Assembly (NCBI GenBank): GCA_934757845.1
Contig: CAKVLQ010000002.1
Location: forward strand, 54,958-118,957
Direction of reading: 5' to 3'
Length of the DNA: 64,000 nt
Source: an uncultured Clostridia bacterium
Lineage (GTDB): Bacteria > Bacillota > Clostridia > Christensenellales > UBA1242
Shown here piece after piece: positions 1,720 to 54,489 of this stretch. Below the pieces are notes generated by a model that saw only the letters and a list, made by a program, of their open reading frames with translations, was not told where the DNA came from and ran no database searches. The position numbers and the translations under genes are program-made. How positions within the stretch are numbered: position 1 is the first letter of the stretch; every line of letters starts with the position of its first letter.

Positions 1720-3972
1720 ATGATATGTGAAGTTATTGTTGACATTGCTTCTTCACCAGTTGACAGAATTTTTGACTATAATTTTTCAACCGACCTAAAC
1801 CTTAAAATCGGTCAACGAGTTCTTGTTCCGTTTGGAAACAGACAAATTGAAGGCTATGTTCTTGGTTTTAAAGAAAATTCAAATCTTGATTCATCTAAAC
1901 TTAAAAGCGTAATAAAAAGTTTAGATGATTTTTCATATCTAAACGATGAAACAATCGCATTAATGCAGTTTATGATAAAAACATATAATCTTCGTTATGC
2001 TGATTGTTTAAGGCTTTTTGTGCCTAATGTTATAAGAAAGAATGTTAAAGAAAAATATACAAAATATGTTAAACTTTGCGATAATTTTGAAAAAGATAGA
2101 TTAGGTTTTAACATAAACAATTCTTCCGCACAAAACCAAACAGATAATAAAACACACATAAAAAAAATAAACGAAAAACAAGCAAAAATCATTGAATTTT
2201 TAATGAAAAATTCGCCATTTAAGTTAAGTGAACTTAATGTTTTGTTTTCTTCGCAAAGCATAAAAACGCTAATTAAAAATGGTATAATTCAAACTTTTGA
2301 AGTTTTGGATAAACGAAGCCCATATTTGGGATTAAGTCAAAACAACAAAAAAACTGAAATTGTTTTAACAGATGCTCAACAAAATGCGGTTGACACCATA
2401 ATACAAAATCCACAAAACACATTTTTGCTTTTTGGCGTAACTGCAAGCGGGAAAACCGAAGTGTATATAAAAGTTATTGAGCATTGTTTAAGATTGGGGA
2501 AAACCGCATTATTGCTTGTTCCTGAAATTGGCTTAACGCCACAACTTTTCAAGCGCTTTACAACCGTTTTTGGGGATAATGTTGCAATTATTCACAGTGG
2601 ATTATCGCAGGGTGAAAAACTTGACGAGTGGCTAAAAATTAAGCGGGGAGAGGCAAAAGTGGTTATAGGGGCTCGAAGTGCAATATTCGCTCCGCTTGAA
2701 AATATTGGAGTTATAATAATTGACGAAGAACACGACACAAGTTATTATTCCGAAACAAATCCTCGTTATTACGCCAAAGATGTGGCAGAATTTAGGGCAA
2801 AATTCAATAACGCAAGTTTAATTCTTGGCAGTGCCACACCTTCAATCGAAACCTATTATTTGGCAAAACAAGGACAAATTAAACTTATCGAAATGAAACA
2901 GCGGGCAGTTGCAAAAAAACTTCCAGACATTTTTATTGTTGACATGATGAAAGAATTAAGAATGGGCAACACAAGTATGTTTTCAAAACTTTTGCAACTA
3001 AAACTTAAAGAGTGTTTAAACAAAAACCAGCAAGCCTTAATTTTTTTGAACAGGCGGGGTTACACTTCTTTTTTAAGATGCCTTGATTGTGGATATGTTC
3101 CAAAATGCGAAGATTGTGATGTTAGTTTGGTTTATCACAAAGAAGACGAAAAATTGAAATGCCATTATTGCGGAAATAGATATAAAGTTTTAACAAAATG
3201 CCCACAATGTGGAAGCACCAACATTCGTTTGGGTGCGGTTGGAACCCAGCAAGTGGTTGAAAAACTTGAACAAATTTTTCCAAATGTTAAAGTTTTTAGA
3301 ATGGATAACGACTCAACCACCACAAAAGATTCGGCAACAAACATAATTGAGCAATTCAACAACACAAAACCAGCAATTTTGGTTGGAACGCAAATGATAA
3401 GCAAAGGTCATAACTTTAATGGCGTAAGTTTGGTTGGAATTATTGATGCCGATTTAAGTTTGCATTATGCAGATTTTAGGTCAACCGACCGAACTTTCAA
3501 TTTGCTAACGCAAGTGGCAGGCAGGGCAGGGCGAACAAATCTTGATGGTGAAGTGGTTTTGCAAACTTATATGCCCAGGCATTTTGCTTATGCGTGTGTT
3601 TGCTCAAACAACTATGAAAAATTTTTTGAAAAAGAAATAAATTTAAGAAAAGTTACAAAATTCCCACCATTTTCAAAAATTGTTAGAGTTTTGGCAACAA
3701 GTGAAGATGACGAAAAAGTTAAAGAGTTTGTTCAAAATTTCTATCAAAAAGTGGTTGATATAAAAAACCAAAATTTGCCCGCATTTGTTTATGTTGGGGC
3801 AATGAAAAGCCCAGTTAAACGAGCCAAAAAGCAATATAGATATCAAATTTTGATGCGATTAAATAACGATTATGCCGATGAAATTATTTCAAAATTGTTT
3901 GAAATTAACAAAGAACTTTATAACAAAAATGTTACAAGTTTTGTTGAACTTGACCCACAAAATTTAAGTTAA
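1720..3972 (+). CDS. priA: primosomal replication restart helicase PriA
   Basis: Walker A GVTASGKTEVY, DEEH box IIIDEEHD, and paired CxxC zinc motifs (CLDCG..CEDCD..CHYCG..CPQCG). Confidence 0.92.
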   Translation: MICEVIVDIASSPVDRIFDYNFSTDLNLKIGQRVLVPFGNRQIEGYVLGFKENSNLDSSKLKSVIKSLDDFSYLNDETIALMQFMIKTYNLRYADCLRLFVPNVIRKNVKEKYTKYVKLCDNFEKDRLGFNINNSSAQNQTDNKTHIKKINEKQAKIIEFLMKNSPFKLSELNVLFSSQSIKTLIKNGIIQTFEVLDKRSPYLGLSQNNKKTEIVLTDAQQNAVDTIIQNPQNTFLLFGVTASGKTEVYIKVIEHCLRLGKTALLLVPEIGLTPQLFKRFTTVFGDNVAIIHSGLSQGEKLDEWLKIKRGEAKVVIGARSAIFAPLENIGVIIIDEEHDTSYYSETNPRYYAKDVAEFRAKFNNASLILGSATPSIETYYLAKQGQIKLIEMKQRAVAKKLPDIFIVDMMKELRMGNTSMFSKLLQLKLKECLNKNQQALIFLNRRGYTSFLRCLDCGYVPKCEDCDVSLVYHKEDEKLKCHYCGNRYKVLTKCPQCGSTNIRLGAVGTQQVVEKLEQIFPNVKVFRMDNDSTTTKDSATNIIEQFNNTKPAILVGTQMISKGHNFNGVSLVGIIDADLSLHYADFRSTDRTFNLLTQVAGRAGRTNLDGEVVLQTYMPRHFAYACVCSNNYEKFFEKEINLRKVTKFPPFSKIVRVLATSEDDEKVKEFVQNFYQKVVDIKNQNLPAFVYVGAMKSPVKRAKKQYRYQILMRLNNDYADEIISKLFEINKELYNKNVTSFVELDPQNLS

Positions 3973-4291
3973 TCCTAACTTTTTCAACTAAAAAAGTTAC
4001 AAAAAGGTTTGGTGGTTGCAATTCACCCAAACTTAAGGATAAAATTATTTGAAATTGATAATGTATTAAAATTATTATTTTTAATTAATAACAAAACAAT
4101 CAATAAAAAGGATAAAAATATATAATAACTTATTTTATATAAAATAATAAATCAATAAAAAAAATTGCATTGGCAATAAATAAAATTTTAAAAAAATTTG
4201 AAAACTCAAAAAAATTTTGCACTTTTGAAAAAATTAAAAAAAGAAAATAATCAAAAAAATTAAAAAAATTTTAAAAAAATGTGAAATATGC

Positions 4292-4524: not shown

Positions 4525-5802
4525 ATGGGAAAAAGAAAATTAAATTCAAAAACAAAATATGTTTCACTAATTTTGGTTTTTGCCTTGGTTGCAATCTCGT
4601 GCTTGTCTTGGATAACTTATGCATGGTTCACCGACAGAAAAGATTTTTCAGGCAATTTAACCTTTGGCACAGTTGAACTTGATGTTAGTGGCACAGGTGT
4701 TGACAACACAACAAAAAAACTAAAATTTTCAACCACAAGAAATGATTCAACATGGACAGGCAACATTATGCCGGGCGATACAATAAACATTCCGCTAACA
4801 ATAAGCTTAACCAGCACAAGTGAAGATGCTTATTATATTGTTCAAATTTCAGACGATAAAAATATATTTGAAAATGCTTATTATTACAGCCAAAACGGAA
4901 CAGATGTTTATGTAAATAACGGTTCAACAATAACAAAACAAGGCACAACAACCACAGTTACAAGCCCCGTAGTTGGCAAACTTTTGAAAGGCACAAGCGG
5001 GCATAATATAACAATAGGTGCAAAAATAAGTGAAGACTTTGAACAAAAAGGCATTTCCACAACAATCGAATGCAATATTTATGCAATTCAAGTTGCGAAC
5101 CTAACAGAAGCCGATGCATATATTCTTTTAAACAAAGAAGCAACAACCGTGGCACATTTTATAACTGGATGGCAATCAGCGATTGCAAATGTGGCTAATT
5201 TTACCACAATTGGATTTTATGAAAAAGGTAGTCAACCAGCAACCACTACATTTAATAGTGAACTAACAACATCATATAACAATGCGGTTACAAATGAAGC
5301 AGACAAAAACCTTATTGAAGTTTACACAAACGGAACAACAGAACTAGCATTTGTTAGTGAATACAAAATTTATGCACCAGAGAATTGTAAGTATTTGTTT
5401 GGGTGGAATATTCCATTGGGTATTGGTTTTTTGAAATGTGAGATATTTGAGTTTGAAAACTTTTATACGAATAAAGTAACTGATATGAGTTCTATGTTTT
5501 ACACAAATCGAAATGTGAAAAGCATAGATTTGAGTAATTTTAACACAGAAAATGTTGAAACAATGAGTAGTATGTTTAAAGCGTGTGGTGATAGTTTGAC
5601 TAGTCTTGATTTATCGAGTTTTAACACAACAAAAGTTAGTGATTTTGACGATATGCTTGGCAATTGCAACGGTTTGACTAGAGTAGATATACCTTTAAAG
5701 TTCACAAACAAAGGAACTGCTTTCACAAAAGCAACTTTATGTGAGACGACAGGTTTGTCAACCAGTGTGGCGGTTTATCGTGATGGAGAGTTGTTGGCAT
5801 AG
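4525..5802 (+). CDS. secreted protein: TasA/camelysin-type (SipW-class) signal peptide and N-domain fused to BspA/DUF285-type leucine-rich repeats
   Basis: AAAGGAG RBS. N-terminus is basic, then a TM segment, then YAWFTDRKDFSGNLTFGTVELDV (the AxFTD...GT..L motif of TasA/M73 family signals). C-terminal repeats: VTDMSSMF..IDLSNFNTENVETMSSMF..LDLSSFNTTKVSDFDDML. Confidence 0.6.
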   Translation: MGKRKLNSKTKYVSLILVFALVAISCLSWITYAWFTDRKDFSGNLTFGTVELDVSGTGVDNTTKKLKFSTTRNDSTWTGNIMPGDTINIPLTISLTSTSEDAYYIVQISDDKNIFENAYYYSQNGTDVYVNNGSTITKQGTTTTVTSPVVGKLLKGTSGHNITIGAKISEDFEQKGISTTIECNIYAIQVANLTEADAYILLNKEATTVAHFITGWQSAIANVANFTTIGFYEKGSQPATTTFNSELTTSYNNAVTNEADKNLIEVYTNGTTELAFVSEYKIYAPENCKYLFGWNIPLGIGFLKCEIFEFENFYTNKVTDMSSMFYTNRNVKSIDLSNFNTENVETMSSMFKACGDSLTSLDLSSFNTTKVSDFDDMLGNCNGLTRVDIPLKFTNKGTAFTKATLCETTGLSTSVAVYRDGELLA

Positions 5803-5894
5803 CAAACTTATAAGTTTGATTGCAAAATGCGTGCAACAAATTTGCAAACTCTTGCAAAGGGCAAGGGGGAACTTTATTAAATTTAATAATTTTG

Positions 5895-25678: not shown

Positions 25679-25996
25679 TTATAAAGTTTTTTCCATGTCT
25701 TTGTCATGCTTTTTTTGGCAAGATAAATATTCTTTTCCAAATTTTTCACTCAAAAAACCAAACCATCTTTTTTGCATACCTTTTGTTAATTTGTCATTAA
25801 AAAATTGACTTTTTTCAAGGGCGATACATTCAAAATCTTTAAGCAAAAATTTTGGGTGATTATTTTTTTGTGTTATAAAATCTATTGAAATAACGGGGAA
25901 TAATTCTTTGCCTGATTTTTTAAAGCCTTTAATGTGGCAATTATAAATTTCTGCAAACATATCAAGTTCATCTTTTTTAACTCTTTCAACGAACAT
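25679..25996 (-). CDS. hypothetical protein
   Basis: 105-aa ORF with an AGGAG RBS. No motif recognised. Confidence 0.5.
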   Translation of the reverse strand: MFVERVKKDELDMFAEIYNCHIKGFKKSGKELFPVISIDFITQKNNHPKFLLKDFECIALEKSQFFNDKLTKGMQKRWFGFLSEKFGKEYLSCQKKHDKDMEKTL

Positions 25997-28392: not shown

Positions 28393-28893
28393 TTAAGGAG
28401 TTATAACAACAATTTTAACCCCTTGTTTTTTTGCATAATCAATAGTGCTTTTTGTTCCACCTGATTTTCCACCAAAAAGAGCAATTAAAAGCGAAGAATT
28501 GTTTATCATAAACCTATTTCGCTCTATCATGCACTCGCTTCCAATATAATTATCATAAATGCACCTTATGCTATCAAGTTTTTTAAGCAGACGCCTATAT
28601 CTTTTTTGGTCTTTTTCGCTCCATAGTTTGTCTTGCGTTTTGCAAGGAAGAGCGCCAATAAGTTTTATGTGCGGATAATGTTTTTTAAGTTTCAAAACCA
28701 TTTCGGCACAAATAGTGTCAAAGCCAAGTGCCATTCCACAAATAAATGTTGAATAACCATTATTTATTGCACTTATAATTTCTTTTTTAAGCCGAGATTT
28801 CATTTTTTTGCACCGCTCGTCTTTTTCATTAAACCCCCACGGCAAACTTTGTGCACGATGCCCCGAAAAGCAACAGGTGGTTGAGTTTAGCAT
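28393..28893 (-). CDS. DUF1273 / SLOG-superfamily protein (YpsA-like)
   Basis: GGAGG RBS. N-terminal TCCFSGHRAQSLPWGFNEKDERC and later GMALGFDTICAE..ALPC..Q..W are as remembered for clostridial DUF1273 proteins. Confidence 0.7.
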   Translation of the reverse strand: MLNSTTCCFSGHRAQSLPWGFNEKDERCKKMKSRLKKEIISAINNGYSTFICGMALGFDTICAEMVLKLKKHYPHIKLIGALPCKTQDKLWSEKDQKRYRRLLKKLDSIRCIYDNYIGSECMIERNRFMINNSSLLIALFGGKSGGTKSTIDYAKKQGVKIVVITP

Positions 28894-28908
28894 AGTTAAA
28901 CCTCCAAT

Positions 28909-28923
28909 GTCAAGAATATATCG
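28909..28923. promoter_or_regulatory. operator-like motif copy 1 (GTCAAGAATATATCG)
   Basis: One of three copies of GTCAAGGATATATCS in the divergent control region. Abuts the SLOG gene RBS. Confidence 0.5.
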
Positions 28924-28950
28924 TTTATATTCTCATATTGGGTCAAAAAA

Positions 28951-28965
28951 GTCAAGGATATATCC
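28951..28965. promoter_or_regulatory. operator-like motif copy 2 (GTCAAGGATATATCC)
   Basis: Contains the perfect 10-bp palindrome GGATATATCC. Confidence 0.5.
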
Positions 28966-28998
28966 CTGAATAATTAAAAATGTCAATGATAAACTAAA

Positions 28999-29013
28999 TT
29001 TAAGGATATATCG
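28999..29013. promoter_or_regulatory. operator-like motif copy 3 (TTTAAGGATATATCG)
   Basis: Ends 1 nt before the GGAG RBS of HTH gene 1, downstream of a TGaTAAACT extended -10 at 28987-28995. Confidence 0.5.
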
Positions 29014-29024
29014 TGGAGATTTTT

Positions 29025-29264
29025 ATGAAAACATTGCAAGCAATAACAAAAAGAATTTTGGATTTGTGTGAAGAAAGGGATATAACGCCTAACAAACTTG
29101 GCACAATTTCGGGCGTTGAGCCAAGCACTATAACAAGTATATTTTATGGGAAAAGTAAAAATCCTGGCATTATAACATTAAAGTCAATTTGCGATGGTCT
29201 TGAAATTTCAATTTTTGATTTTTTCAATGACCCGATGTTTAAAACTACTGATTTGGAAGATTGA
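29025..29264 (+). CDS. small XRE-family HTH protein, array member 1
   Basis: 79 aa, GGAG RBS. Cro/C1-like pattern ITPNKLGTISGVEPSTITSIFYGK..ITLKSICDGLEISIFDFF and an acidic tail DLED. Confidence 0.75.
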   Translation: MKTLQAITKRILDLCEERDITPNKLGTISGVEPSTITSIFYGKSKNPGIITLKSICDGLEISIFDFFNDPMFKTTDLED

Positions 29265-29267
29265 AAA

Positions 29268-29507
29268 ATGAAAATATCAAATGCAATTTCAATAAGATTA
29301 AGAGAGATTTTTAAAGAAAAGAATATAACACAATATAGGTTAGAGCAAAATGCTGGGATTTCTCACGCAACAATGATGGACATAATGAATGCAAAAAGAG
29401 ATAGTTGCAATGTTAAAACATTAATAATAATCATTAGAGCATTAGGTATAACTGTATCTAAATTTTTTGATAGCCCGATTTTTGAAAGTGAAGAATTAGA
29501 TTTGTAG
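29268..29507 (+). CDS. small XRE-family HTH protein, array member 2
   Basis: 79 aa. ITQYRLEQNAGISHATMMDIMNAK..IIIRALGITVSKFFDSPIFESEELDL. Confidence 0.75.
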   Translation: MKISNAISIRLREIFKEKNITQYRLEQNAGISHATMMDIMNAKRDSCNVKTLIIIIRALGITVSKFFDSPIFESEELDL

Positions 29508-29518
29508 GAGTTTGTTTT

Positions 29519-29761
29519 ATGAAAATTAATGAAGCAGTGGCAAAAAGAATTGATGAGTTGTTATTTAAAAATGGTTGGTCTTTATATAAATTATCAAAAA
29601 TTTCATGTATCCCACTTTCGACTTTAAAAAATTTATATACAAATCACACAAAAAGCCCAACACTATCTGTTGTGTTTAAAATTGCCGATGCTTTTAATAT
29701 TACAGTTATAGAATTTCTTGATTGTTCTTTGTTTAAAAGTGAAGATTTGGAGATTGGCTAA
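29519..29761 (+). CDS. small XRE-family HTH protein, array member 3
   Basis: 80 aa, AGGAG RBS. WSLYKLSKISCIPLSTLKNLYTN..KIADAFNITVIEFLDCSLFKSEDLEIG. Confidence 0.75.
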   Translation: MKINEAVAKRIDELLFKNGWSLYKLSKISCIPLSTLKNLYTNHTKSPTLSVVFKIADAFNITVIEFLDCSLFKSEDLEIG

Positions 29762-29762
29762 T

Positions 29763-30005
29763 ATGAAAATATCTATGGCGGTAGCAACAAGAATAAGAGA
29801 AATTTTGGCAGAAAAAAACATGACGCAATATAGGTTAGAAATAAATTCAGGTTTATCAAAAGGCACTTTAACTTCACTTATGTATGCAAGATATAAAGGT
29901 GTTAATTTAACAACATTAATAACAGTTATAAGAACTCTTGGAATTACTGTTGACGAATTTTTTAAAAGTTCGCTTTTTGATGAAGAAAATTTAGATTGTG
30001 AGTAA
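29763..30005 (+). CDS. small XRE-family HTH protein, array member 4
   Basis: 80 aa. The ATG lies 1 nt after the member 3 stop (the track ORF starts earlier, at 29718). MTQYRLEINSGLSKGTLTSLMYAR..VIRTLGITVDEFFKSSLFDEENLDCE. Confidence 0.75.
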   Translation: MKISMAVATRIREILAEKNMTQYRLEINSGLSKGTLTSLMYARYKGVNLTTLITVIRTLGITVDEFFKSSLFDEENLDCE

Positions 30006-30014
30006 GGATTAAAA

Positions 30015-30257
30015 ATGAAGTTAAACAAAGCGTTTGCAAGCAGAGTAAGAGAAGTTTTAAAGAATAAAAATATGACACAATATAAACTTGGTCAACAAAC
30101 GGGTTTATATCACAGCACGCTTACTGATATTTTAAATTGTAAATATCAAACACCAAATTTTAAAAATATGGCTTTAATAATTCGTGAACTTGGCATGAGT
30201 ATGCAAGAATTTTTTGATAGTGAAGTTTTTAATTTTGACAATTTGGAGATTGATTAA
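30015..30257 (+). CDS. small XRE-family HTH protein, array member 5
   Basis: 80 aa. MTQYKLGQQTGLYHSTLTDILNCK..IIRELGMSMQEFFDSEVFNFDNLEID. Confidence 0.75.
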   Translation: MKLNKAFASRVREVLKNKNMTQYKLGQQTGLYHSTLTDILNCKYQTPNFKNMALIIRELGMSMQEFFDSEVFNFDNLEID

Positions 30258-30393: not shown

Positions 30394-30423
30394 TTGACAT
30401 TTTGTGATTTGATTTTATATAAT
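30394..30423 (+). promoter_or_regulatory. sigma-A promoter of ftsA-ftsZ
   Basis: TTGACA, 18-nt spacer, TATAAT. A second TTGATT-17-TATAAT lies about 60 nt upstream. Confidence 0.6.
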
Positions 30424-32843: not shown

Positions 32844-33254
32844 ATGAAAAAACAAGAATATTTTGAAAGTAGTGCAGAACTAACCATATTTTTTGATAGC
32901 GATTTTAATCCTAATATTTTAACCAAAATTTTGAATGTTAACGCAAGCAGAATTGTTCAAAAAAAAGATGCAACACAAAATTTATTTAACCCAAAAGGGC
33001 TTGGATTTTTTCAAATTGCAACAAATTCGGCAAAAAGCAAAGAACCTGAAATTGCGATTGCCACAATTTTGCAGTTGTTTATTTCAAAAGTTGATATGGT
33101 TAACAAAATTGTTAAAGAAAATAATGGGTTTATTCAACTTGAACTTTTTGTTAAAGTTTCAAAGGGTGGAAAAGCACCTTTTATAAATTTGTCAAAAAAT
33201 GCAATAAAATTGCTTTCTCAACTTGATGCTAATTTTAAAATTAATTTGATTTAA
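32844..33254 (+). CDS. DUF4279-like protein
   Basis: The N-terminal pattern AELTIFFDSDFNPNILTKILNVNASRIVQKKDA and the C-terminal INLSKNAIKLLSQLDANFKINLI match my recollection of the DUF4279 profile. No search was run. Confidence 0.5.
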   Translation: MKKQEYFESSAELTIFFDSDFNPNILTKILNVNASRIVQKKDATQNLFNPKGLGFFQIATNSAKSKEPEIAIATILQLFISKVDMVNKIVKENNGFIQLELFVKVSKGGKAPFINLSKNAIKLLSQLDANFKINLI

Positions 33255-38967: not shown

Positions 38968-39063
38968 GATTTTTCCTTTTTATCTTTCGATATATTTCAT
39001 TATATTTAAACAAAACTTTTAAGGTTACTTTACAAAATTTTTTGTTTTTGATAAAATAAAAAT

Positions 39064-53522: not shown

Positions 53523-54489
53523 TAAATTGAAAGAAAAAATTAATAAGTTTGATTTTTGCTCAAAATTTAAAATTTGTGCAATAATAAGTTTAACTTTGGT
53601 TTTGATAGGCGTTTTAATTGTTTCTATTTTTGGATTTAATTTGGGAATAGACTTTACGGGCGGAACAGTTTTGAATGTTAAAGTTGGGGCAGTTTTGGAA
53701 GAAGGCAACAACTATTCTATTGTTTCAAATCAAGTTTCAAACATTTTCAAAAATGAAGGATATGAAATTGGATATATCCAACAAGAAGGCGAAGGGGAAG
53801 ATGCTTCGCTTACAATTAGATTTAAAGATAAATCAGGGCTTACAGAAGCACAAATGCAAGAAGAAATTGAAAATCTTAAAACACGAATTTCAAACGAAGT
53901 TACAATTCATGATGAACAAGTGGTTATTAATGTTTCTAATGGGTCAAGAATTGCGGCAAGTGCAAGCACATCGCTTTTGATGAATTCACTTTTGGCAATT
54001 TTGATTGCAGTTATTTTAATTCTAATTTATATTGCAATTAGGTTTGAACTTTTAAGCGGACTTGTTGCAATTATTATGCTTGTGCATGATGTCTTGATAA
54101 TGTGCGCTTTGGTTGCTGTGTTCCGAATTCAAATAAATGCTGGTTTTATTGCTGCATTAATTACTATTATCGGTTATTCAATCAACAATGTTATTATTGT
54201 GTTTGACCGAATAAGAGAAAACAAAAAGAAAGACGAATTTAAAGGTTTGGCAAGCACCGAACTTGCAAATGCGTCAATAAGACAAGTTTTGAACCGAACA
54301 TTCTTAACAGCCTTAACAACCATTGTGTCTATTTTGGTGTTAACCATTGTTGGTGTTCCAAGCATTCGAGAATTTTTGCTTCCAATTTTGTTTGGGCTAT
54401 TCTCTGGTATTTATTCTTCAACAATGCTTGCTGGTCCACTTTGGGCATTAATCAACGACAAAACAACAAAAAAATCAAAAAAACAATAA
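53509..54489 (+). CDS. secF: protein translocase subunit SecF
   Basis: GIDFTGGT and YSINNVIIVFDRIREN. Overlaps the secD end. Confidence 0.9.
   Translation: MKTNNKLKEKINKFDFCSKFKICAIISLTLVLIGVLIVSIFGFNLGIDFTGGTVLNVKVGAVLEEGNNYSIVSNQVSNIFKNEGYEIGYIQQEGEGEDASLTIRFKDKSGLTEAQMQEEIENLKTRISNEVTIHDEQVVINVSNGSRIAASASTSLLMNSLLAILIAVILILIYIAIRFELLSGLVAIIMLVHDVLIMCALVAVFRIQINAGFIAALITIIGYSINNVIIVFDRIRENKKKDEFKGLASTELANASIRQVLNRTFLTALTTIVSILVLTIVGVPSIREFLLPILFGLFSGIYSSTMLAGPLWALINDKTTKKSKKQ

Follow-up and report, generated by a model that had tools for sequence, protein, structure and literature searches.

In the cell-division gene region of an uncultured gut member of the Christensenellales, a gene of the SLOG/YpsA family and an array of five small helix-turn-helix (HTH) genes are transcribed away from each other, and the short spacer between them carries three related, partly palindromic sites. 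Which protein reads these sites, and which promoters do they control? We addressed this question in a stretch of 64,000 nucleotides (contig CAKVLQ010000002.1; hereafter the window). The spacer comprises 131 bp (28894-29024) and is bounded by the ATG of ypsA on the minus strand (28893) and the ATG of the first array gene, HTH-1, on the plus strand (29025). Judged by sequence comparison, the three sites, termed O1, O2 and O3, are likely to be operators of HTH-1, a 79-aa Cro/C1-type protein. Our comparisons show that the sites are real, non-random and inherited with the HTH-1 class at fixed geometry.

Concerning the sites themselves, an earlier note on this DNA had described three copies of a 15-nt motif in the spacer, at 28909-28923 (GTCAAGAATATATCG), 28951-28965 (GTCAAGGATATATCC) and 28999-29013 (TTTAAGGATATATCG). 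All coordinates check against the sequence, and the copy spacings of 42 and 48 bp given there are likewise returned by a repeat finder. The repeated unit is longer than 15 nt; the three copies belong to a 17-nt family (AAWGTCAAGRATATATC), and an 18-bp palindromic frame accommodates each of them, with first positions at 28910, 28952 and 29000. Of the three, the middle copy is the best palindrome (TCAAGGATA/TATCCCTGA), with one mismatch to the ideal. Perfect matches to AAGRATATATCS occur three times in the window, all of them within the spacer (span 105 bp). The count against a shuffled background that the earlier note had proposed was run on the window: six matches with at most one mismatch were found, 0.64 were expected, and none of 100 shuffles reached six. 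Since the motif counts exceed the shuffled expectation, a chance origin of the three copies is excluded.

Further motif-like words were considered and rejected. The word at 38988, which had already been suspected to be chance, is without the AAGG arm and differs from AAGGATATATCS at more than two positions; we take it for a chance match. A lone copy of GGATATATCC (53770-53779) lies within coding sequence. A partial fourth copy in the spacer, overlapping the -10 element of the HTH operon, is probably not an operator; GTCAA is not kept there in other HTH-1-class spacers. Matches to the 15-mer GTCAAGGATATATCC in metagenome_contigs and viral_contigs were chance and uninformative: a second GATATATC-like word lies nearby in 2 of at least 220 matching loci, and the three-site layout was not seen in the printed flanks of either of these two among the matches listed. 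Two neighbouring matches to GATATATC in locus L030 (2511 and 2577) fall inside an ABC-ATPase coding sequence and are chance as well.

HTH-1 has many homologues at 71-86% identity, and these carry the same sites into unrelated loci. Ten contexts besides the window were examined, with homologues at 72-85% identity. They comprise YpsA-WYL-BrxA-BrxB loci (WYL/BREX, two variants; L083, L312-315 and also L333), a uvrB-uvrA locus with a short YpsA (L086/87), a version of that locus in which the upstream region has been exchanged (L084/85), and a diverged YpsA-like gene with a SNIPE nuclease (L088/89/91) together with a deleted variant of it (L090). Other homologues face a 56-aa open reading frame (ORF; L317/318), lie upstream of infC (L319-323), or face a 173-aa YpsA (L328) or RadC (L329-332). 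The O3 block AAGGATATATC, which lies within 25 nt of the start codon, is centred 10-21 nt before it in nine of the ten contexts, the exception being L084/85. Eight also have the O2 block AAAGTCAAGGATATATCCC 47-49 bp upstream of O3, with TGnTAAAnT between the two. An O1-type third site, 41-42 bp beyond O2, is present in five contexts, all facing a YpsA-like gene; it is absent from L090, though this variant faces a YpsA-like gene too, and wherever the partner is RadC, the 56-aa ORF or none. The register is strict: wherever O2 is kept (eight contexts), its centre precedes the TG of TGnTAAAnT by 27 nt, and the O3 centre follows that TG by 20-22 nt. The O2 block itself hardly varies across nine contexts; beside it, AGTCAA is kept in 8 of 9 contexts with this site (TGTCAA in L090). 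When eight HTH-1-class spacers are aligned, conservation is restricted to the three sites and the -10 element, and the first site of L088 is a perfect 14-bp palindrome, AAGGATATATCCTT. On the protein side, the HTH segment ITPNKLGTISGV(E/D)PSTITSIFYGKSKNPG is nearly invariant in HTH-1-class proteins, and HTH-2 to HTH-5 differ there.

Loci with other HTH proteins tell what happens when the regulator changes. A genome scan with a YpsA alignment yielded 80 related loci, and in about 50 of them at least one HTH gene of the array family is transcribed divergently from ypsA. GATATATC was found in the ypsA upstream region of none of the 80. It is likewise missing from 46 YpsA loci with other HTH classes, whose own class-specific repeats occupy matching positions. 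The 14-20-nt word that recurs within a spacer differs from lineage to lineage, examples of such repeats being TTATGTTTTTACATAA, GACYAATCYACAMTAC, TTCGATTTATACTA, TGGGTATTTATATACC, TGAATGTTTTTAC and TTGGTnnACCAA. In many loci the copies recur at about -130, -80 and -45 to -25 from the HTH start, and the window copies at -119, -77, -46 and -29 fit these positions; the repeat-count statistic is weak in AT-rich DNA, and the evidence is this positional agreement, not the counts. Sorted by the recognition-helix segment of the proximal HTH protein, the loci fall into groups by motif. The same motif is found in nine other contexts with HTH-1-class genes, and the site changes when the HTH segment changes. 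These comparisons strongly support the earlier proposal that a dimeric HTH protein from a neighbouring gene uses the sites as operators of autoregulation: the motif travels with HTH-1-class genes, its spacing and its position relative to the extended -10 included. A resemblance to the Spo0A box (TGTCGAA versus TGTCAAG) was also considered and dropped, because the motif changes with the HTH class.

The earlier note had named all five array proteins as candidate binders. A binder within the array is upheld, but HTH-1 alone is the likely one, and the other members belong to other operator classes. The lone regulators of L051, L031, L013, L005 and L061, all of which are paired with TTATGTTTTTACATAA, share 82-92% identity with HTH-4. 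HTH-5 is 86% identical to the regulator of L069, whose sites are of the GGTTTTCC type, and HTH-2 is about 60% identical to regulators of the TGAATGTTTTTAC class; HTH-3 has no close relative. Operators of other classes (TTATGTTTTTACATAA, TGGGTATTTTTAC, GGTTTTCC-type and others) have chance-level near-matches at most in the window. In other arrays that have close single-gene relatives, the spacer matches the operator of the proximal member at 14-16 of 16 positions and those of distal members at 10-12 of 16. Two independent lines of evidence thus point to HTH-1 as the cognate binder, and by these predicted specificities HTH-2 to HTH-5 are orphans with respect to the window spacer. As to the arrays themselves, L325 and L326 (~5300-5860) have the same YpsA and one versus two HTH genes; array length therefore varies within species.

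Promoter prediction relied on extended -10 elements that are conserved and keep fixed distances; the window positions were read from the sequence. Of 46 distinct family spacers, 34 have TGnTAnnnT on the HTH side, ending 25-45 nt ahead of the HTH start (2.9 expected), and 39 have it on the other strand, ending 15-45 nt, mostly 30-45 nt, before ypsA (3.7 expected). The extended -10 TGATAAACT that had been pointed out upstream of HTH-1 is present as described, and as TGnTAAAnT it is conserved in eight other HTH-1-class contexts. It predicts an operon start at ~29002 and a -35 position at 28967-28972. The extended -10 of the putative ypsA promoter ends 33 nt before the ypsA start codon, at the family mode, and predicts a start at ~28920. 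O1 (centre 28918.5, about +2 of the ypsA promoter) would thus cover the ypsA start. The centre of O2, 28960.5, corresponds to about -40.5 relative to the predicted ypsA start and to about -41.5 relative to that of the HTH operon. O3 (centre 29008.5, at about +7 relative to the HTH-operon promoter) spans the operon's predicted start and abuts the HTH-1 ribosome-binding site. The neighbourhood of the outer copies to the two ribosome-binding sites, likewise part of the earlier description, is exact: GGAGA of HTH-1 (29015-29019) begins 1 nt past copy 3, and that of ypsA (CCTCC on the plus strand, 28901-28905) is 3 nt from copy 1. The placement of copy 2 at a -35 element has to be amended: O2 only touches the -35 position of the HTH operon, and the -35 that it does overlap is the predicted one of ypsA, on the other strand. 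The sites are predicted to control this divergent promoter too, its -35 sharing bases with the flank of copy 2. The features are listed in Table 1.

Table 1. Predicted control elements of the ypsA-HTH spacer and the genes adjoining it, in window coordinates.
Feature	Position	Strand	Sequence	Remarks
ypsA-like SLOG gene	28393-28893	-		166 aa; Pfam PF06908, E=1.3e-30, 107 bits
Putative operator O1	28910-28927		TCAAGAATATATCGTTTA	core AAGAATATATCG, 28912-28923; palindrome frame and repeat search
Extended -10, predicted ypsA promoter	28927-28935	-	TGAGAATAT	written TGaGAATAT
-35, predicted ypsA promoter	28950-28955	-	TTGACT	17 nt from -10; left flank of O2
Putative operator O2	28952-28969		TCAAGGATATATCCCTGA	best palindrome of the three
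Partial fourth copy	28979-28991		AATGTCAATGATA	overlaps HTH-operon -10; repeat finder
Extended -10, predicted HTH-operon promoter	28987-28995	+	TGATAAACT	
Putative operator O3	29000-29017		TTAAGGATATATCGTGGA	core 29002-29013; palindrome frame and repeat search
HTH-1	29025-29264	+		79-aa Cro/C1-type protein; proposed binder of O1-O3
HTH-2 to HTH-5	29268-30257	+		~80-aa paralogues; same operon, other specificity classes

Taken together, the three sites surround two back-to-back predicted promoters, and their ideal form is the 14-bp palindrome AAGGATATATCCTT, to which a dimer of HTH-1 would bind. HTH-1 at O2 and O1 would keep the SLOG/YpsA gene off, and HTH-1 at O3 would limit its own five-gene operon by negative autoregulation. 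Lambda CI activates from about -41 at OR2; by analogy, HTH-1 bound at O2 may activate the HTH-operon promoter from about -41. The positions of the promoters, the sign of the regulation, dimer binding and any inducing signal are predictions.

Several observations weigh against this reading. O1 is the weakest copy, with a G to A change in its AAGG arm (AAGA), and the -10 hexamer of the window ypsA promoter, GAATAT, also agrees less well with the consensus. A sensor or cleavage domain is absent from HTH-1. In L084/85 an identical HTH-1-class protein is found with the operators replaced by a tRNA gene, hence the gene does not depend on the sites. Moreover, RNA of the spacer folds better than shuffles (z = -4.0 for the plus strand, -3.0 for the minus strand), which is, however, expected from repeated palindromes.

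Other readings of the sites have to be weighed against these data. That another array member (HTH-2 to HTH-5) or a mixed dimer binds O1-O3, in place of HTH-1 or besides it, appears unlikely to us. This reading would draw on the common fold and the conserved C-terminal tail of all five array proteins and on the co-transcription of HTH-2 to HTH-5 from the promoter surrounded by the sites. Their recognition helices differ from that of HTH-1, however; HTH-4 and HTH-5 are close to regulators paired with the TTATGTTTTTACATAA and GGTTTTCC-type sites, and the motif accompanies lone HTH-1-class genes without any array. Much less probable is a reader other than an adjacent HTH protein, be it YpsA itself or a global regulator. 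SLOG/DprA-like proteins can bind nucleic acid, and YpsA has a weak match to the DprA family (DNA_processg_A); yet O2 and O3 persist opposite RadC or the 56-aa ORF, and O3 persists without a divergent partner. Among close YpsA relatives the motif varies by class, unlike the box of a global regulator, and it is absent from the rest of the window.

We give hardly any credence to the view that the repeats act as RNA, with the paired palindromes forming a leader or antisense structure or a terminator. Besides the folding scores, a scan flagged O2 and its T-run as terminator-like on the minus strand, but this T-run has only 3-4 T in other HTH-1-class contexts. The predicted starts (~29002 on the plus strand, ~28920 on the minus strand) leave O2 untranscribed, so that neither RNA has two copies, and O3 alone is kept in L319-323, without a pairing partner. 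A search of Rfam with 28700-29200 gave no match, and as the sites are identical everywhere no covariation is available. Least of all do we believe in recombination or cassette-exchange sites that move an HTH-plus-spacer block between loci. Such a block does occur in many unrelated loci, and the breakpoint of the indel between L084/85 and L086/87 lies directly downstream of O3; against this, there is no recombinase gene beside the block in any context examined, and the fixed register with -10 elements suits promoters rather than recombination sites. The two versions of this uvrB-uvrA locus (~3800-4000) are a presence/absence polymorphism in their own right: they do not differ in the HTH protein or in the uvrB-uvrA flank, a tRNA gene takes the place of ypsA and all three operators in L084/85, and the junction is directly downstream of operator 3.

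For HTH-1 as the binder of O1-O3, the nearest known proteins are small Cro/C1-type regulators. The AlphaFold model of HTH-1 (predicted local distance difference test, pLDDT, 86.8) consists of five helices (3-18, 22-29, 33-41, 49-58 and 63-67), and its top folds are 3b7h and C.Esp1396I, followed by DdrO, CapH, ClgR and SinR. Protein 11 of prophage Lp1 (3b7h) is the closest solved relative (sequence E=5.6e-13, fold TM 0.84, 33% identity); it is a structural-genomics entry and is not known to have an assigned operator or function. Generic phage repressor families were matched in PHROGs, and homologues in known phages are distant (at most 51% identity for HTH-1 and at most 43% for YpsA). Among the PADLOC models, Control_protein or CapH were matched weakly and by HTH-2 and HTH-5 alone (Control_protein E ~1e-4 to 6e-4); HTH-1 matched no PADLOC model, Control_protein included.

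The proposed HTH-1 switch is of a well-known kind, in which a small autoregulator of the Cro/C1 type acts on a divergent control region with three operators. Among known kinds it is closest in fold to the controller (C) proteins of restriction-modification systems, which are likewise small and regulate themselves through several palindromic operators in and around their own promoter (OM, OL and OR sets). C.Esp1396I, a ~79-aa five-helix Cro/C1-type protein like HTH-1 (TM ~0.78 to the predicted model, 28% identity), has been crystallised bound to several of its operators, according to the titles of the PDB entries. Unlike C-protein systems, the window module is without restriction or methylase genes; its neighbours are divIB, ypsA, four HTH paralogues and ftsA, the putatively controlled gene is the divergent SLOG/YpsA gene, and the operator is AAGGATATATCCTT-like. 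A type I restriction system does lie downstream of ypsA-WYL in L324, where the regulator is not of the HTH-1 class. In lambdoid phages (lambda, 434, P22), OR places three operators between the divergent promoters PRM and PR. The layout of OR is similar: three partly palindromic sites of 14-18 bp occupy ~100 bp between promoters that point away from each other, the middle one ~41 bp upstream of the promoter of the regulator itself and one outer site on that promoter. The AAGG-N6-CCTT layout of the window resembles the 434-type ACAA-N6-TTGT sites. In contrast to OR, the window has one regulator class, no Cro-like antagonist and no C-terminal oligomerisation or cleavage domain. The module is chromosomal, between divIB and ftsA, without phage genes, and its sites, at 42 and 48 bp from one another, are spaced more widely than in lambda. 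As regards a CI/Cro switch proper, the divergent partner is SLOG/YpsA instead of an HTH gene, and the flanks are division genes.

A parallel with respect to cell division is offered by the SOS module lexA-yneA of Bacillus subtilis, in which a repressor gene is divergent from a cell-division inhibitor gene and several repressor boxes lie in the spacer. In the window a repressor gene is likewise divergent from a putative division-inhibitor gene, with several sites in the spacer. LexA has a self-cleaving peptidase domain, which HTH-1 has not, YneA is unrelated to YpsA, and no damage signal is evident in the window module. No operator lies upstream of uvrB in L086, where a terminator follows the HTH gene; an SOS-like regulon was rejected on these grounds. 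With B. subtilis YpsA (a SLOG protein, PDB 2NX2) and the prophage protein YoqJ, the window gene shares PF06908 and the G-x-D motif. Overproduction of YpsA in B. subtilis prevents FtsZ rings from assembling and stops cells from dividing, and YpsA also impairs division in S. aureus (PMC6459960). In Firmicutes ypsA is coupled to gpsB, and a G-x-D/E motif has been described (PMC6459960). The window ypsA, in contrast to its Firmicute counterparts, is coupled to a divergent HTH repressor inside a division gene cluster. No gpsB-like gene was seen beside it, where the neighbours are a divIB-like POTRA gene and the HTH array, though no dedicated GpsB profile was run. A literature search found no paper linking YpsA to a dedicated repressor; the YpsA-linked repressor family is undescribed and highly diversified.

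Homologues of the window ypsA are numerous (317 at E<=1e-10), the best 120 of the 317 being 65-98% identical, and the G-x-D/E motif (G56-F57-D58) is invariant across 18 aligned sequences. The window YpsA is without an N-terminal extension of ~21 aa (M..EKAKKEI..L; window 28831-28893 versus L003-L082), which is present, with a good ribosome-binding site, in most relatives at 65-77% identity. The YpsA partners of HTH-1-class genes are likewise short (165-166 aa). The short YpsA is consistent with replacement of the 5' end, the spacer and the repressor as one block. A recombinant origin of the window YpsA itself was rejected: there is no internal breakpoint, and identity to the closest relatives, of the extension-bearing L003-L005 type, is even (71-82% in thirds of the protein for the closest two, L003 and L004).

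The five array genes (29025-30257) are separated by 1-11 nt and encode proteins ~30% identical to one another. All five match the Pfam profile HTH_26; HTH-1 scores 27.8 bits (cut-off 22), and 24.2 bits with HTH_3 (cut-off 23). The stop codon of HTH-1 is a TGA in frame with HTH-2 (TGA AAA ATG, window 29262-29270), and a public gene call joins HTH-1 and HTH-2 as one 160-aa product (L001, 5387-5869). Among the 35 ORFs of the window that reach 200 aa, just 1 ends in TGA, so this stop is rare here. Recoding is unlikely because long conserved genes are intact under code 11; read-through may give a tandem HTH-1/HTH-2 fusion.

The ypsA-HTH block sits between the divIB-like POTRA gene and ftsA-ftsZ, with spoIIGA and a sigma factor gene further downstream. 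None of the 80 related YpsA loci has murA, divIB, ftsA or ftsZ within 4 kb, and the division-cluster position of the module is specific to the window lineage. The 185-bp gap between HTH-5 and ftsA contains a perfect promoter match, TTGACA-18-TATAAT (30394-30423); ftsA-ftsZ therefore probably have their own promoter and are not read from the HTH operon. A DUF4279 gene (32844-33254) lies between ftsZ and spoIIGA, and a 105-aa ORF without a Pfam match (25679-25996, minus strand) lies upstream of murA.

Elsewhere, YpsA-HTH modules repeatedly occupy the position immediately upstream of a WYL-domain gene, behind which BrxA/BrxB or type I restriction follows (L312-L314, L333, L324), and they are also found beside a SNIPE nuclease (L088-L091). 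These neighbours suggest a link to defence islands. Modules also adjoin repair genes, namely uvrBA, YolD with a Y-family polymerase, and RadC. Because no operator lies upstream of uvrB, we take the defence and repair adjacencies for insertion preferences rather than for a regulon. A window-type module (L002) occurs in sequencing run ERR7738630 together with the BREX-adjacent module L333, in which an HTH protein 80% identical to HTH-1 is accompanied by the same three operators, a 166-aa YpsA, WYL and BrxA/BrxB. The two modules probably share one genome and would cross-regulate.

Beyond the switch itself we put forward, with considerable reserve, a wider hypothesis: ypsA-HTH would be a member of a large mobile 'heteroimmune' switch family of gut Christensenellales, gating a SLOG/YpsA effector that may halt division, with orphan repressors that silence or immunise in trans. 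If so, about ten repressor/operator classes would share one rigid architecture of two promoters and two to four operators. The window promoter would also drive four orphan repressors of foreign classes, which could silence other YpsA modules in trans or give immunity to newly arriving ones, and the second, BREX-adjacent module with the same operators would be cross-regulated. About ten natural repressor/operator pairs on one promoter scaffold are possible orthogonal parts and a case study of regulator and operator co-change. For an undescribed regulator family of uncultured gut Clostridia, the present analysis provides a concrete operator (AAGGATATATCCTT-like) and, in HTH-1, a concrete predicted binder. 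It places a YpsA-type SLOG gene under a dedicated predicted repressor, here between divIB and ftsA; as the Bacillus homologue blocks FtsZ-ring formation when overproduced, this suggests an inducible division brake.

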